Shown here one piece after another: positions 38,941 to 43,081 of a stretch of DNA of 64,000 nt (its first letter is position 1; each line of letters opens with the position of its first letter). The notes below the pieces were generated by a model, which worked only from the letters and a program-made list of their open reading frames with translations, was not told where the DNA came from and did no database searches. The translations under genes were made by a program, and so were the position numbers. Origin of the DNA: Burkholderiaceae bacterium (GTDB taxonomy: Bacteria > Pseudomonadota > Gammaproteobacteria > Burkholderiales > Burkholderiaceae_C); contig JBEIHU010000001.1 of the NCBI GenBank assembly GCA_040381175.1, forward strand, positions 20 through 64,019, in the 5' to 3' direction.

Positions 38941-39283
38941 TCAGCGGCCGCGCGCGGCCAGCACGTTGCGCAGCGATGCCGGGCTCACCGAAGGCGGCCC
39001 GTCCGGTTCCTCGCGAGCCAGGCCTCGCCGTCGAAGCCGGCCGCGGCGAAGTACGCGCTGCGTGCCACGCCGCAGGCGACGCCAGCGGCCCGGCACTCGT
39101 CCATCAGGCGCAGCACGCCCGGGCGGGCGCGGATGCCGCCTTTGCGTCAGCAGATCGGCATGGATGGCGTTCTTGCGCGGCCGCAGCCTCGCGCCAGGAC
39201 CTCGCGTTCGGACCGGCGACAGGGCGCGTCACTGCGGCGCTGCATGCAGCCCAGCATGCGCTCGCGCCGACCGTGGCTCACAT
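38941..39283 (-). pseudogene. cbbY: CbbY (HAD-family XuBP phosphatase) remnant
   Basis: Frameshifted fragments GRRERML...EREVLAR / RKNAIHADLL / GGIRARPGVLRLMDECRAAGVA / SAYFAAAGF; HAD motif I absent. Confidence 0.6.
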
Positions 39284-39325
39284 GGCGCTCGCCGCAATCG
39301 GGGCAGTTGGTCAGTTTCGAGCCGG

Positions 39326-39813
39326 TCAGGCCGGCGCTGCCACCGAACCGTGCCCCGGGCCGTTGCGCTCGCGCGCCAGCATCTTTTCGGCCAGCGCGAA
39401 GCCGACCGCGTTGCCGACGCCCTGGCCGGTCGGGCCAGTGGTGGCGTCGGCCCCCGGCGTCAGACCCGGTTCCGGCTGACGCGCTGGCTTGCTGTGCAGC
39501 TTGCGGAAGCTTTTGATCTCATCGATCGGCAGCTCGTGGCCGCCCAGGTGCGGCAGCTCCCACGGCAGCATCGACGCGCGGCCGTTGCTGAGCAAGAAGC
39601 GGCGCGGTCCGGCCGGTGCGGCTTGGCCGGGTTGCGGCGCAGGTGGCCGGTGCACAGCGCCACCGCCGTCTCGGCCATGCCTATTGGCGCGCCGGGGCGG
39701 CCGGAGTTGACCTGCTGCACGGCGTCCAGGGCCAGCGCGCGCAGCGCGTCGGCACGCGCATCGGTCGGTGCCCGGCCACTGCACAGCCCCTTGACGTTGG
39801 AGGCTGAAGCCAT
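39326..39813 (-). pseudogene. cbbT: Transketolase (CbbT) N-terminal remnant
   Basis: ADALRALALDAVQQVNSGRPGAP, -1 shift near 39603, RFLLSNGR, TTGPTGQGVGNAVGFALAEK; ~160 codons left, conserved His lost; TGATG-coupled to prk. Confidence 0.88.
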
Positions 39814-40697
39814 CACAGCGCTCCCTGGGCGCGCTTGCGACGCTCCATCATGCGCCAGATGAAGGGCGTGAAGATCAGCTGCATCGCCAGCTCCATCTTG
39901 CCGCCGGGCACGACGATGGTGTTGGCGCGCGACATGAACGAGTCGCCGATCATGTTCAGCAGGTAGGGAAAGTCGATGCCCTTGGGGTTGGCGAAGCGGA
40001 TGACGACGAAGCTCTCGTCGGCGGCAGGGATCTCGCGCGCGATGAAGGGGTTGCTGGTATCCACGCAGGGCACGCGCTGGAAGTTGACATGCGTGTGCGC
40101 GAACTGCGGGCAGATGTAGTGCACGTAGTCGGGCATGCGGCGCAGGATGGTGTCGGTCACCGCCTCGGTGGAGTAGCCGCGCTTGGACTTGTCTCGCCAC
40201 AGCTTCTGTATCCATTCGAGGTTGATCACCGGCACCACGCCAATCAGCAGGTCGGGATAGCGTGCCACGTTGACCTCGGGCGTGATCACCGCGCCGTGAA
40301 GCCCCTCGTAGAACAGCAGGTCGGTGCCGCCGGGCACGTCCTCCCAGGCGGTGAAGGTGCCGGGCTCCTGGCCATGGGGAGCGGCCTCGTCGGCATCGTG
40401 CAGGTACAGGCGGCGCCGGCCGGTTCCGCTTGCGCTGTAGCTGCGGAACAGCTGTTCGAGCTCGGCGAACAGGTTGTTCTCCGGACCGAAGTGGCTGAAG
40501 TGCTTGTTGCCCGCCGCCTCGGCCTCGGCCTGCCGCAGCTTCATCTCCTTGCGCTCGTAGCGGTGGAAGCTGTCGCCTTCGACGATCGCGGCAGTGACGC
40601 TCTCGCGCCTGAAAATGTTTTCGAAAGTGTGCGTCACCGAAGTGGTACCCGCGCCCGACGATCCGGTGACGGCAATGATGGGATGGCGCTCGGACAT
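39813..40697 (-). CDS. cbbP: Phosphoribulokinase (proteobacterial type), intact
   Basis: GSSGAGTT, EGDSFHRYER, FYEGLHG, WIQKLWRD..RGYS, ILRRM, VPGGK; 294 aa uninterrupted. Confidence 0.95.
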   Translation of the reverse strand: MSERHPIIAVTGSSGAGTTSVTHTFENIFRRESVTAAIVEGDSFHRYERKEMKLRQAEAEAAGNKHFSHFGPENNLFAELEQLFRSYSASGTGRRRLYLHDADEAAPHGQEPGTFTAWEDVPGGTDLLFYEGLHGAVITPEVNVARYPDLLIGVVPVINLEWIQKLWRDKSKRGYSTEAVTDTILRRMPDYVHYICPQFAHTHVNFQRVPCVDTSNPFIAREIPAADESFVVIRFANPKGIDFPYLLNMIGDSFMSRANTIVVPGGKMELAMQLIFTPFIWRMMERRKRAQGAL

Positions 40698-40716
40698 GGC
40701 GGCGTGCTTTCGTTGT

Positions 40717-41808
40717 TCAGTCACGGAACAGGCTGCGTTCGGCAAACAGCGGGTTCCGGGTCTCATTGGCGGGTTCGCGGTGGTAGCGCTCGATGCGCTC
40801 GACCTCGTGGCGCGAGCCGAAGACCAGCGGAACGCGCTGGTGCAGCGAGCCGGGCGCCACGTTCAGGATCGGCTGGCGCCCGGTGCTGGCGCGCCCGCCG
40901 GCCTGCTCGATGATGAAGCCGATCGGGTTGCCCTCGTAAAGCAGGCGCAGCCGGCCGGGCTTGGACGGGTCCTTGGTGTCGCGAGGGTACAGGAAGACGC
41001 CGCCGCGCATCAGGATGCGGTGCGCCTCGGCCACCATGCTGGCGATCCAGCGCATGTTGAAGTCCTTGCCGCGCGGCCCGGTGCGTCCGGCCAGACACTC
41101 GTCGACATAGCGCTTGACCGGCGGCTCCCAGAAGCGGCTGTTCGAGCTGTTGATGGCGAACTCCTGCGTGTCGGCCGGCACGCGGATGTCCGGGTGCGTC
41201 AGGACAAACTCGCCCAGGTTCGGGTTCAGCGTGAAGCCGCTGACGCCGTTGCCCACGCTCAGGATCAGCATCGTGGTCGGGCCGTACAGCGCGTAGCCGG
41301 CGGCCACCTGCTGCACGCCCGGTTGCAGGAAATCGGCCTCGCCAAGGTGGCGGCCGCTGTCCACCGCCTCCTGCGGCGCGCGCAGGATCGAGAAGATGCT
41401 GCCGACCGAAAAGTTGACGTCGATGTTCGACGAACCATCGAGCGGATCGAAGACCAGCAGGTACTTGCCGCGCGGGTACTGCGCCGGGATCTGCAGCAGG
41501 TCGTCCATCTCTTCCGAGGCCATGCCGGCGAGGTGGCCGTTCCACTCGTTCATGCGGATGAAGACTTCGTTGCTGAGCTCAACCAGCGGCTTCTGCACAT
41601 CGCCCTGGACGTTGATTCGGCCGTCCTGGGTCGGGCCAGTGTCGGCCAAGGAATCGTGCAGTTCGCCGAAGGCCACGATACGGGCGATCGCCTTGCACGC
41701 CAGCGCGATGTCCAGGATCAACGCGTTCAGGTCGCCGCTGGCTTGCGGAAAGCGGCGGCGCTCCTCGATCAGGTGACGGGTCAGGGTCCAGCGCTTGGAC
41801 ATGGGCAT
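40717..41808 (-). CDS. cbbF: Class 1 fructose-1,6-/sedoheptulose-1,7-bisphosphatase, intact
   Basis: [39 protein letters not shown]; 363 aa uninterrupted. Confidence 0.95.
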
Positions 41809-41825
41809 GGTCGCGGCTTTCCGGT

Positions 41826-42491
41826 TCAGGTGGCGGCGGCGAACACGCGGCTGGCGCGCAGGTCGGCCACCTCGGTGGTGCTCAGGTCGTCGCCCGTCAG
41901 CGCGCGGTCGCGGCCGGTGAACAGCCGGCTGGCCTGGCGCAGCCGCGCTCGGTCCAGCGCATTGCGCGCGCTGCGCGCATTGGCGAAGTGCGGCTGCAGC
42001 CGTCGCAGGCCCAGGCATTCGGCGAAGACCCCGCGCGCTCCCGGGCCGAAGCGGCAGTGCAAGGCGTCGAGCATGCGCTCGGCGATCTGCAGCAGCTCGG
42101 CCTGGGCGCAGTCGGGAAAGTCCAGGTGGTGGGCAATGCGCGAGCTCATGCCCGGGCTGCTCTTGAAGAGGGTGTCCATGCGGTCCTTGTAGCCGGCCAG
42201 GATCACCACCAGGCCGTCACGCTGGTTCTCCATCACCTGCAGCAGGATCTCGATCGCCTCCTGGCCGTGGTCGCGCTCATTCTCCGGGCGGTACGGACAG
42301 CAGGCCTCGTCGATGAAGAGCACGCTGCCCATGGCGCGCTGGAGCACCTCCTCGGTCTTGGGCGCGGTGGGGCCGATGTACTGGCCGACCAGGTCGCGGT
42401 CGAGCGCGTCCATCACCGCCTCGATCAGGCTCTGTGCCAGCACCTCGTTGACGGCGCGCGCATCGCCCGCGAAGGCGGCGGGCGCAGCCAT
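41826..42491 (-). pseudogene. cbbX: Rubisco activase CbbX with internal in-frame deletion
   Basis: LDRDLVG joined directly to QYIG; Walker A (GNPGTGKT) missing; VLFIDEA, RPENERD.GQEAIEILLQVMEN, FANARS present. Confidence 0.88.
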
Positions 42492-43081
42492 GGTTGCGGC
42501 CCGACAGGCCCAGCTTGGGCTTGGTGGTCGCGCCCAGCAGCGGGCGGCCGGACTTGTGCAGCCGCTCACACTCGACCACCAGGCCGGTGGGCGGGCCCTT
42601 GAAGGTCTTGACATGGGCCACAGGGATGCGGATGTCCTCCAGCCTTGCCGCCTTCAGCGGCTTGAAGCTGAAGACGTTGCCGATGAGGCTGGCCGTCATG
42701 TTGGCGATGGATCCCTCCTCGAACAGGATCAGGTCGCAGGTCACCCAGGCGAAGTGCTCGTCCGGCAGCCCCGGCACCGGCTCGACCCTGTAGGCCTTGG
42801 CGCGGTAGCTGTCGCAGGCCGTCAGCCGGTCGGTCCAGACCACCGCCCAGGAGCCGGTGCTCGATCCGCCGGCCTCCTCCGCGGCCGCCTCCACCGGGTC
42901 GGCCCCGTCCTGCGGCGTGACGCGGAACAGGCACAGCGTGTCCGTCTCCCGGGTCACGGAATCGGGCTGCCCTTACCCCATTTACCGGTCCTTGAGCACG
43001 CCGGGCCGAATGGCGCTTCCTGGCGTCGCCGGTGACGTCGGTGGCCTCGGTCACGAGGTGGCGGTCTGCGGGCTTGTTCAT
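42488..43081 (-). pseudogene. cbbL: Form I (red/IC) Rubisco large subunit, 5' remnant
   Basis: ATG 43081, +1 shift, two TAA stops, then [40 protein letters not shown]; ends before the KDDE site. Confidence 0.92.

Follow-up and report, generated by a model that had tools for sequence, protein, structure and literature searches.

The decayed cbb operon

The window analysed here, 64,000 nucleotides of a Burkholderiaceae bacterium (contig JBEIHU010000001.1 of assembly GCA_040381175.1), carries on its minus strand a decayed Calvin-cycle operon in which two reading frames are still whole. As reference for the lesions we used the sister genome G014, whose syntenic cbb operon is essentially complete; the two loci share gene order and genomic site, with 85–89% DNA identity. 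Order and site are also those of the form IC operon of Rubrivivax, given for Rubrivivax sp. A210 as cbbR-L-S-X-F-P-T-Y (PMC8218464), whereas in the window deletions or other lesions have destroyed the genes for RuBisCO, activase, transketolase, CbbY and CbbR, and CbbF lacks Asp76. Relative to G014, cbbR and cbbS are missing, cbbL, cbbX, cbbT and cbbY are broken, and cbbF (40717..41808; class I fructose-bisphosphatase [FBPase] fold, 363 aa) and cbbP (39813..40697; proteobacterial phosphoribulokinase [PRK], 294 aa) have neither a stop nor a frameshift.

Upstream, the operon is flanked by an intact PHA-system gene (43316..43657, minus strand; TIGR02610 above cut-off), identified also by synteny, and downstream by a small intact gene (38669..38923, plus strand), presumably acyl-CoA-binding-like, that is common to the window and G014. 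Between the PHA gene and cbbL, where G014 has cbbR, some 960 bases have shrunk to 134 (43182..43315), with no CbbR match in the region; this complete deletion was missed by the original prediction. The cbbL remnant (42484..43081) holds codons 1–199 of the RuBisCO large subunit; of its 1488 bases 597 are left, a loss of 60%. Its frame is shifted by a +1 insertion at 43006, and codons 33 and 36 read TAA (42984 and 42975). At 42483 a deletion of roughly 1,420 bases took the rest of cbbL, the entire cbbS and the start of cbbX, of which a remnant (41826..42483) is fused behind cbbL; a further 231-base deletion at 42396, flanked by 12-base direct repeats, removed its Walker A motif. In cbbT (39274..39813), 552 of 2016 bases are left (27%), with deletions of 1 base at 39603, 697 bases at 39349 and 911 bases at 39274, the last reaching into cbbY, and with His replaced by Arg or Gln in the SGHPG, NGHAS and PGHPE motifs. 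Fragments of the HAD phosphatase gene cbbY (38941..39273; 338 of 723 bases) are marked by indels of one base and by the loss of 240 bases at 39090. Alignment to G014 thus bears out the original prediction on the frameshift, two stops and roughly 60% loss in cbbL, the absence of cbbS, the lost Walker A motif of cbbX, the frameshift, approximately 75% loss and missing His residues of cbbT, and the fragmentation of cbbY. The cbbL remnant is the only PF00016 match in the assembly, which is 89% complete in 324 contigs; a second transketolase begins on contig C259.

Sequencing or assembly error is ruled out as the source of the lesions, as originally argued, because lake-metagenome contigs from other studies (X2, X3, X4, X5 and X6; X1, a possible source run, was excluded) run across the same deletion junctions without gaps.

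Selection on cbbF and cbbP

Branch-specific maximum-likelihood estimates of omega separate the broken genes of the window lineage from the whole ones. Against the background, omega is raised 4–14-fold in cbbL (0.174 versus 0.017), cbbX (0.151 versus 0.037) and cbbT (0.282 versus 0.020; p<1e-3 for each), whereas neither cbbP (0.041 versus 0.042) nor cbbF (0.056 versus 0.048) shows a rise, and omega = 1 is rejected for both. Differences between the window and a lake strain tell the same story. The remnants together have 14 synonymous and 35 nonsynonymous differences (for cbbT and cbbY a listed subset only), cbbL alone 3 and 7, while cbbP has 3 and 0 over 794 covered bases and cbbF 0 and 1 over 1068 bases. 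At the cbbL/cbbX rate about 7 nonsynonymous differences would be expected in cbbP and about 9 in cbbF (P ~0.001 each); jointly, 1 was observed against about 16 expected (P 1.5e-6). The purifying selection predicted for both genes, for which a per-gene dN/dS comparison had been proposed, is therefore upheld by branch omega and strain differences alike.

It is very improbable, and largely refuted by these figures, that cbbF and cbbP are dead as well and owe the lack of a stop or frameshift to mere chance. Simple counts do point to relaxation of cbbF relative to two sisters (35/40.5 versus 8/42, p 0.0005; odds ratio 1.5 for flanking genes), and the promoter is eroded, as such a reading would have it; against it stand the background-level omega values, the deficit of nonsynonymous differences, and the persistence of the same gene pair in about six lineages.

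If neutral omega is taken as 1, cbbT was lost earliest, and cbbL and cbbX decayed across approximately the last 60% of the branch. The lesions, omega values and strain differences support the view that the decay is old and that this locus has ceased to serve CO2 fixation. Among the cases found the window is the youngest, with remnants and order of loss still readable.

An unchanged kinase beside an altered phosphatase

PRK of the window passes the NF011997 model with 507.7 bits (cut-off 362) and matches R. sphaeroides PRK (PDB 1a7j, E 5.5e-118) over its full length, with catalytic and ligand-binding residues kept. The residues that we take to be functional (Walker A, D42, H45, R49, E131, K165, R168, D169 and R173) are conserved, and 28 of 28 checked functional positions are as in the RuBisCO-positive genomes G014 and G021. 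For cbbP, the expectation of an intact gene holds fully.

For cbbF it holds at the level of the reading frame and fails at the level of the protein. CbbF passes NF006779 (497.5 versus a cut-off of 349) and resembles class I FBPases (PDB 7k74, 2gq1 and pig FBPase) in fold and metal ligands, most of which (DPLDG, EE, E292) are intact, but it has Val in place of a catalytic-loop Asp (Asp76Val, 41581–41583), together with the change Glu70Asp in that loop. On active-site positions that we assume from pig FBPase numbering, 2 of 27 are changed, one of them conservatively. Of 44 reference CbbFs at least 95% have the Asp at position 76, as do the three solved FBPases aligned; Val76 is shared by the lake strains, for which no difference is listed at this position. 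Lying at the end of the K-x-L-D loop, Asp76 is presumably the equivalent of pig Asp74. The latter is described as bridging the catalytic water to metal II (PMC5639204).

The C terminus of CbbF carries a PLFxxRSLF motif. Of 126 CbbFs encoded next to PRK, 119 have this motif and 7 a near variant of it; none of 9 housekeeping Fbps has it. An AlphaFold2 model of the window CbbF has a mean pLDDT of 52.6, and a complex prediction with PRK scored 0.00, which weighs neither for nor against an interaction. The pattern of a pseudoenzyme, a fold under purifying selection that has lost catalytic residues, is weak in the window taken alone (one radical change) and strong across relatives: as many as 16 of the 18 active-site residues are gone from their CbbFs, and yet ORF and C-terminal motif persist. 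The original proposal that an intact FBPase–PRK enzyme unit was kept is not supported by this comparison: CbbF lacks an invariant catalytic-loop Asp, and in all RuBisCO-less relatives with the pair at the cbb site the active sites of CbbF are altered and those of PRK are not.

Recurrence after loss of RuBisCO

The same outcome is found at the same site in seven other members of the genus, belonging to two further clades: no RuBisCO was found, the PRK active site is untouched, and CbbF is whole with a changed active site. Trees of flanking genes and of PRK resolve three independent RuBisCO-less lineages at the cbb site, each sister to RuBisCO-positive genomes. In these, omega is 0.033–0.036 for PRK (versus 0.053) and 0.065–0.084 for CbbF (versus 0.067). 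Active-site changes in CbbF occur in 8 of 8 RuBisCO-less same-site genomes against 4 of 40 references, and in 55 of 216 active-site cells against 41 of 1555 cells at other invariant positions, although p-values for the active site are overstated because the position list was drawn up after the changes had been seen and kin are not independent. Our conclusions do not depend on the unpublished genome G107.

Of 250 genomes sampled from the wider family, 87 encode PRK, five of these without a RuBisCO match. All five, from three other genera, have cbbF adjoining cbbP and between 1 and 16 of 18 CbbF active-site positions changed; their PRK active sites are intact save for the conservative T19S and K53R, both seen in other relatives, and scraps of cbbX or cbbL are left in two. 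The association has exceptions on either side. G281 and G152 have one change each in the 18-site list; G016 has no RuBisCO match yet an intact CbbF active site; and degenerate CbbF also stands beside intact RuBisCO (G140, G037, L228), and so is no peculiarity of RuBisCO loss. Moreover, 68 of 163 genomes of the genus have no PRK match, so the PRK–CbbF module must be dispensable in many lineages. In two genomes (G026, G027) a PRK without RuBisCO stands alone; the window differs from these in having RuBisCO remnants alongside, and a PRK that travels with a degenerate CbbF. Among the openly accessible papers searched, we came across none that describes a PRK kept together with a degenerate CbbF once RuBisCO has gone.

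One could suppose that the cell still fixes CO2 by way of a RuBisCO, for example of form II, whose gene falls in a gap of the assembly; PRK would then serve it. The window assembly probably misses genes at contig ends (pufLM, fbp), and relatives such as G218 and G010 have swapped form I for a nearby form II-like gene. Decay has, however, also struck cbbT, cbbR, cbbY and the promoter; in relatives with form II, cbbT and cbbR are still there and the CbbF active site is unaltered; and the near-complete genomes G321 and G442 (99–100% complete, in 6 and 10 contigs) show the same pattern with no RuBisCO match. We regard a hidden RuBisCO as decidedly unlikely.

All 9 other genomes of the genus that hold PRK without RuBisCO have reaction-centre genes, as do 4 of the 5 family cases; phototrophy is in any case common in the genus, being seen in 21 of the 27 further genomes examined for it. 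The window assembly, from an uncultured bacterium, has no PF00124 (pufLM) match, but genes on both sides of pufLM in G014 have their counterparts in it, the adjacent one cut at a contig end. In having photosynthesis genes without a working RuBisCO, these lineages resemble aerobic anoxygenic phototrophs that have no Calvin cycle. One of these, Elioraea tepida, is described as having neither PRK nor RuBisCO (PMC8781829), whereas the lineages studied here hold PRK under selection.

Promoter, gluconeogenesis and alternative substrates

In the original proposal, the FBPase–PRK unit was probably still read from the cbbL promoter. This is disfavoured because the gene for the activator CbbR is deleted and the CbbR-type promoter (43082..43181, minus strand) is eroded: in an alignment of 16 upstream regions, the motifs TCTGACTTTCC-TTAA and CTACAGT are conserved in relatives and degenerate in the window, where the -10-like CTACAGT has become CCAGAGC. 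No sigma-70 consensus site was found in 43082..43181, and scans for promoters, terminators and repeats gave no signal above chance. At most 8% of the sequence words of the stretch occurred in any RNA run.

The first reading of the locus would make CbbF a working gluconeogenic FBPase/SBPase, with PRK kept alongside in a small catalytic unit. The window assembly has a single class I FBPase, CbbF, and no glpX; G014 likewise shows one FBPase copy, the only FBPase found in G016 is an intact CbbF, and G245 has the degenerate CbbF only, with no glpX found. Most metal ligands of the window CbbF are intact as well. The nearly invariant Asp76 is, however, lost, and seven relatives with a separate FBPase with intact motifs (G006, G011, G093, G125, G147, G149, G152) keep CbbF although it is degenerate; a separate FBPase is also found in 3 of the 5 family cases. 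In the sister genome G066 housekeeping fbp directly follows pepN, and contig C29 of the window assembly ends inside pepN, 500 bases short of that position. Because the expected position of the housekeeping gene is thus a contig gap, CbbF as sole FBPase is not supported; a 22-base pattern scan of metagenome contigs for housekeeping fbp gave no hits. A catalytic unit, which would also leave selection on PRK unexplained, appears unlikely to us.

Slightly less credible still is PRK as a general sugar-phosphate kinase in catabolism, acting on F6P, S7P or Xu5P, with CbbF catalysis removed against a futile cycle. Such a role would fit the clustering of CbbF changes in the active site, where Ser127 is hit in 6 of 7 other same-site genomes, and the retention in two clades of CbbY, an XuBP phosphatase. 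The substrate-binding residues of PRK nevertheless show no shift, and it would be left unexplained why the fold and tail of CbbF stay under purifying selection. The genome also has a Pfk, the only one found, with a GGNGS motif that by the motif rule we take to be ATP-type; this speaks against the new substrate, and a PPi-dependent bypass for gluconeogenesis is rejected on the same finding. Nor does PRK replace transaldolase, which is present in G006, G011, G093, G125 and G016 and in 106 of 129 genomes overall (none was seen in the window assembly). Also rejected was a route from RuBP to PRPP via ribose-1,5-bisphosphate. Among 30 genomes PhnN was found in a single one, which is not RuBisCO-less, and nearly every genome, whether or not it has PRK, carries one member of the PF01008 isomerase family.

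A possible signalling role for PRK and CbbF

We are highly confident of the lesions and their occurrence in other strains, selection on both ORFs, the unchanged PRK residues, the targeted change of the CbbF active site and recurrence in about six lineages. An overall explanation, to which we give an even chance, sees in PRK the enzyme that selection retains; its product RuBP would act as an energy/redox signal, or the reaction as an ATP valve, in a photoheterotroph, and CbbF would be a non-catalytic sugar-phosphate-binding partner. The operon has lost RuBisCO, activase, transketolase, CbbY and CbbR, and selection keeps an intact PRK and an FBPase-fold CbbF devoid of an invariant catalytic Asp. 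In proteobacteria, PRK responds to NADH as an activator and to AMP as an inhibitor, and could in this way convert the light-driven ATP/NADH state of the cell into a level of RuBP; CbbF, the predicted non-catalytic partner of PRK, would regulate the kinase through the conserved C-terminal motif. These two steps we hold tentatively, at somewhat short of even. That FBPase activity of CbbF is low, and that housekeeping Fbp carries out gluconeogenesis, is probable.

Two published findings weigh against such a role: RuBP build-up is described as toxic in R. rubrum (PMC9999600), and CbbY as highly selective for XuBP over RuBP (PMC9833046). In two other clades of the genus, CbbR and CbbY are under purifying selection, and the RuBP-responsive CbbR with the phosphatase CbbY would complete a circuit that writes, reads and erases the signal. 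The window lineage would represent the minimal core, in which no reader or eraser of an RuBP signal is identified because CbbR and CbbY have been lost.

PRK is regarded as an enzyme of the Calvin cycle only and as a marker of autotrophy. About six independent lineages have kept it under selection although RuBisCO was lost, next to a phosphatase whose active site, but not whose fold, has repeatedly gone. In such cases prk should not count as evidence of CO2 fixation, nor should these CbbF copies be annotated as active FBPases. The cases also make two questions testable with defined proteins: the role of PRK in RuBisCO-less proteobacteria, and the origin of aerobic photoheterotrophs from CO2-fixing purple bacteria. 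A wider and more doubtful possibility is that proteobacterial cbb operons contain a hitherto unrecognised regulatory module made up of PRK and CbbF, with an NADH/AMP-sensing kinase making RuBP as second messenger and an FBPase-fold sensor of sugar phosphates docking on the kinase via its C-terminal motif. If so, the module would outlive CO2 fixation whenever a purple bacterium becomes an aerobic photoheterotroph, CbbF being repeatedly made a pseudoenzyme, and would account for the numerous PRKs of RuBisCO-less bacteria, among them the E. coli homologue PrkB.

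Decay of the cbb operon

On the minus strand at 38941–43081, remnants of cbbL, cbbX, cbbT and cbbY flank whole cbbF and cbbP ORFs. The sister genome G014 carries, at the same site and with the same flanking genes, a complete cbbR-L-S-X-F-P-T-Y operon, with 78–89% DNA identity to the window over matched cbb segments. In alignment to G014, cbbR is deleted entirely; cbbL has a +1 shift at 43006, two TAA stops and 597 of its 1488 bases; a single deletion of ~1,420 bases runs from cbbL through cbbS into cbbX; a 231-base deletion between 12-base repeats has cost cbbX its Walker A; cbbT, with deletions of 1, 697 and 911 bases, keeps 552 of 2016 bases; and cbbY, with a 240-base deletion and single-base indels, keeps 338 of 723. 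The lesions listed in the original prediction were accurate, although the cbbR deletion had been overlooked. Single-base indels in cbbL and cbbR of G014 are probably read errors, since cbbL omega (dN/dS) between G014 and a second sister, G066, is 0.04. In these sisters, one-base frameshifts interrupt cbb genes that are otherwise strongly conserved (locus L050 at 7740 and ~6360; cbbX, cbbF and cbbR of L097), probably through long-read errors.

At least half of the sampled words of the window were present in six sequencing runs, one of which, a possible source, was excluded. Contigs from lake runs X2 and X3 span the deletion junctions without gaps (X2 contigs cover 42234–44200 and 38499–39441), which bears out the earlier view that the decay is no artefact. 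The lake allele of cbbT/cbbY has indels of its own and lacks one window indel, thus decay went on after the alleles split. Over this remnant (38941–39800), ~4–5% of sites differ from the lake allele, with private indels; elsewhere divergence is ~1% in cbbL/cbbX and 0.2% in cbbF/cbbP. The cbbT/cbbY remnants are two old pseudogene alleles, probably swapped by recombination. The parts of the operon belong to known families, and their decay is real, old and well supported.

Upstream of cbbL, relatives have the common motifs TCTGACTTTCC-T(T/G)AA and CTACAGT, and most RuBisCO-less relatives have recognisable versions of both upstream of cbbF. In the window both are degenerate and cbbR is absent.

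Selection on the surviving genes

In a branch codon model, in which codon bias lowers absolute values, omega on the window lineage versus background was 0.174 versus 0.017 for cbbL, 0.151 versus 0.037 for cbbX and 0.282 versus 0.020 for cbbT, unlike cbbP (0.041 versus 0.042) and cbbF (0.056 versus 0.048), which stay at background. For cbbY (91 codons) the two were not distinguishable (0.113 versus 0.136), nor did four flanking genes depart from background. Simple counts gave dN/dS of 0.63, 0.61, 0.97 and 0.69 for the remnants, 0.14 for cbbP and 0.24 for cbbF. Relative to the two sister genomes, selection has relaxed in part on cbbF (p = 0.0005) but not on cbbP (p = 0.16). In the remnants, window and lake strain are separated by 14 synonymous changes and 35 nonsynonymous ones, to which cbbT/cbbY contribute a listed subset of differences only; the corresponding numbers are 3 and 0 in cbbP and 0 and 1 in cbbF, against ~16 nonsynonymous changes expected in cbbF plus cbbP at the cbbL/X rate. 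These few nonsynonymous differences, together with low omega, mean that both genes are still under selection, as originally proposed. Survival of the pair by chance, with which the partial relaxation of cbbF might agree, is barely credible beside these counts.

Window phosphoribulokinase (PRK, cbbP) aligns to R. sphaeroides PRK across its length and retains 28/28 of the functional positions checked. The CbbF loop reads KPLVELS, a change common to lake strains, where at least 95% of 44 reference CbbFs and three solved FBPases aligned to CbbF have K-x-L-D. We take CbbF position 76 to be the equivalent of pig FBPase Asp74, mutants of which suffer large activity loss. PMC5639204 describes Asp74 as bridging a catalytic water to metal II. 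Window CbbF is predicted not to be intact as an enzyme. Thus the claim that cbbF and cbbP are intact stands for both ORFs and for the PRK functional positions, and falls for CbbF, whose K-x-L-D Asp is lost. A still active FBPase would fit the absence of any FBPase other than CbbF from the window's assembly. However, contig C29 of that assembly terminates within pepN, directly 3' of which G066 carries housekeeping fbp, so this gene is probably just unassembled; in light of this and the lost Asp, we consider an active CbbF rather unlikely.

Recurrence of the RuBisCO-less pair

PRK occurs in 95 of 163 genus genomes at least 85% complete, and eight of these holders besides the window (G006, G011, G016, G084, G093, G125, G147, G149) gave no RuBisCO match; G084, whose contig ends inside cbbX, was grouped with references. 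Nor was a match found in G152 (84% complete) or G087 (75% complete). At the window's site, gene order is cbbR-F-P-Y in G011, G149, G093, G125, G147 and G152, and cbbX-remnant-F-P-Y in G006. In trees built from flanking proteins and from PRK, these same-site relatives fall into two clades separate from the window, each adjoining RuBisCO-positive genomes. That RuBisCO is present in the window's genome and unassembled would suit its 89% completeness; with cbbT, cbbR and cbbY decayed as well and the same pattern in the nearly complete genomes G321 and G442, it seems quite unlikely.

On an 18-taxon tree, omega in three RuBisCO-less lineages was 0.033–0.036 versus 0.053 for PRK and 0.065–0.084 versus 0.067 for CbbF. 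CbbF active-site changes occur in 8/8 same-site RuBisCO-less genomes (G016 and G087, at other loci, excluded) versus 4/40 references, and altered CbbF cells number 55/216 at active-site versus 41/1555 at other invariant positions, the active-site list having been picked after the data were seen and kin not being independent. Each of the seven same-site relatives also encodes another FBPase, with motifs intact in the four read. The exception is G016, with an intact CbbF active site and one FBPase found; its locus (L065, 6905–10887) has the cbbX 5' end cut. In G087 (L135, 2243–8297; no RuBisCO match at 75% completeness), PRK and a strongly degenerate CbbF adjoin hydrogenase maturation-like genes, a possible further origin of the pair.

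PRK occurs in 87 of 250 family genomes with completeness of at least 95%; five of these holders, in three other genera, gave no RuBisCO match. In all five F is a whole ORF adjoining P, and PRK keeps the 25 checked residues bar two conservative variants, while the CbbF active-site positions changed, of 18, number 7 in G245, 1 in G281, 9 in G417, 16 in G321 and 15 in G442. Scraps of cbbX remain in G245 and of cbbL in G281. A second FBPase is clear in three, a fragment in G281 and not found in G245.

Of PRK-adjacent CbbFs, 119/126, dead ones included, carry a C-terminal PLFxxRSL motif and the other 7 near variants of it; among housekeeping Fbps, 0/9 carry it. What is retained is a PRK whose active site has not changed, plus an FBPase fold of which, judging by these sequences, catalysis is expendable, and body and tail are not.

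CbbFs with degenerate active sites also adjoin intact RuBisCO operons (L152 of G140, 2366–3442; L165 of G037, 10721–11740; L228, 4811–5995). CbbF can, by this prediction, become a pseudoenzyme in CO2 fixers too, which argues that its non-catalytic value was not created by RuBisCO loss.

Other arrangements were seen. At L139 (G218, 6168–7427) and L057 (G010, 1450–2682), a distant form II-like RuBisCO (~30% identical) lies a few kb upstream and form I genes are missing from the site; cbbT, cbbR and the CbbF active site are intact. Stand-alone PRKs with intact active sites and no adjoining RuBisCO or cbbF occur in two other families (L163 of G026, which carries pufLM, and L164 of G027). Two records titled Gemmatimonadales and one titled Rickettsia hold Burkholderiales-type cbb operons (L186, L213, L235; PRK 84–86% identical to the query), reflecting gene transfer, misbinning or wrong titles.

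Lifestyle and proposed role

Within the genus, 9/9 other PRK holders without a RuBisCO match have reaction-centre genes, as do 4/5 family cases, but so do 21/27 genus genomes tested, so the link to phototrophy is weak. pufLM was not found in the window's assembly (89% complete). Genes flanking G014 pufLM on both sides (names as we presume them from sequence) match this assembly at ~55–97%, the adjacent one cut at a contig end. The photosynthesis gene cluster is spread over contigs C198, C252, C76 and C157, the puf operon falling in a gap. The window organism is probably a photoheterotroph.

No RuBP-consuming route was found in the RuBisCO-less genomes scanned (no match to a RuBisCO-like protein, PhnN or an extra isomerase). 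We regard a PRK acting on another kinase substrate as unlikely with the active site unchanged. In a regulatory role, RuBP would be the readout by which PRK signals the NADH/AMP state, or PRK would burn off excess ATP; CbbF would be a partner that binds ligand and modulates PRK. PMC6458275 cites RuBP and FBP as possible CbbR effectors, and CbbR and CbbY are still under selection in the other two RuBisCO-less clades. Against this, the window lacks both CbbR and CbbY, CbbY is reported to prefer XuBP (PMC9833046), and excess RuBP is reported toxic (PMC9999600).

We found no report of a recurring RuBisCO-less PRK-CbbF module in the literature, nor mention of PRK-only genomes in the available part of one genome survey (PMC7895386). 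The survivor pair cbbF-cbbP is repeated and unexplained, and a regulatory role of PRK-CbbF would be the most economical reading.
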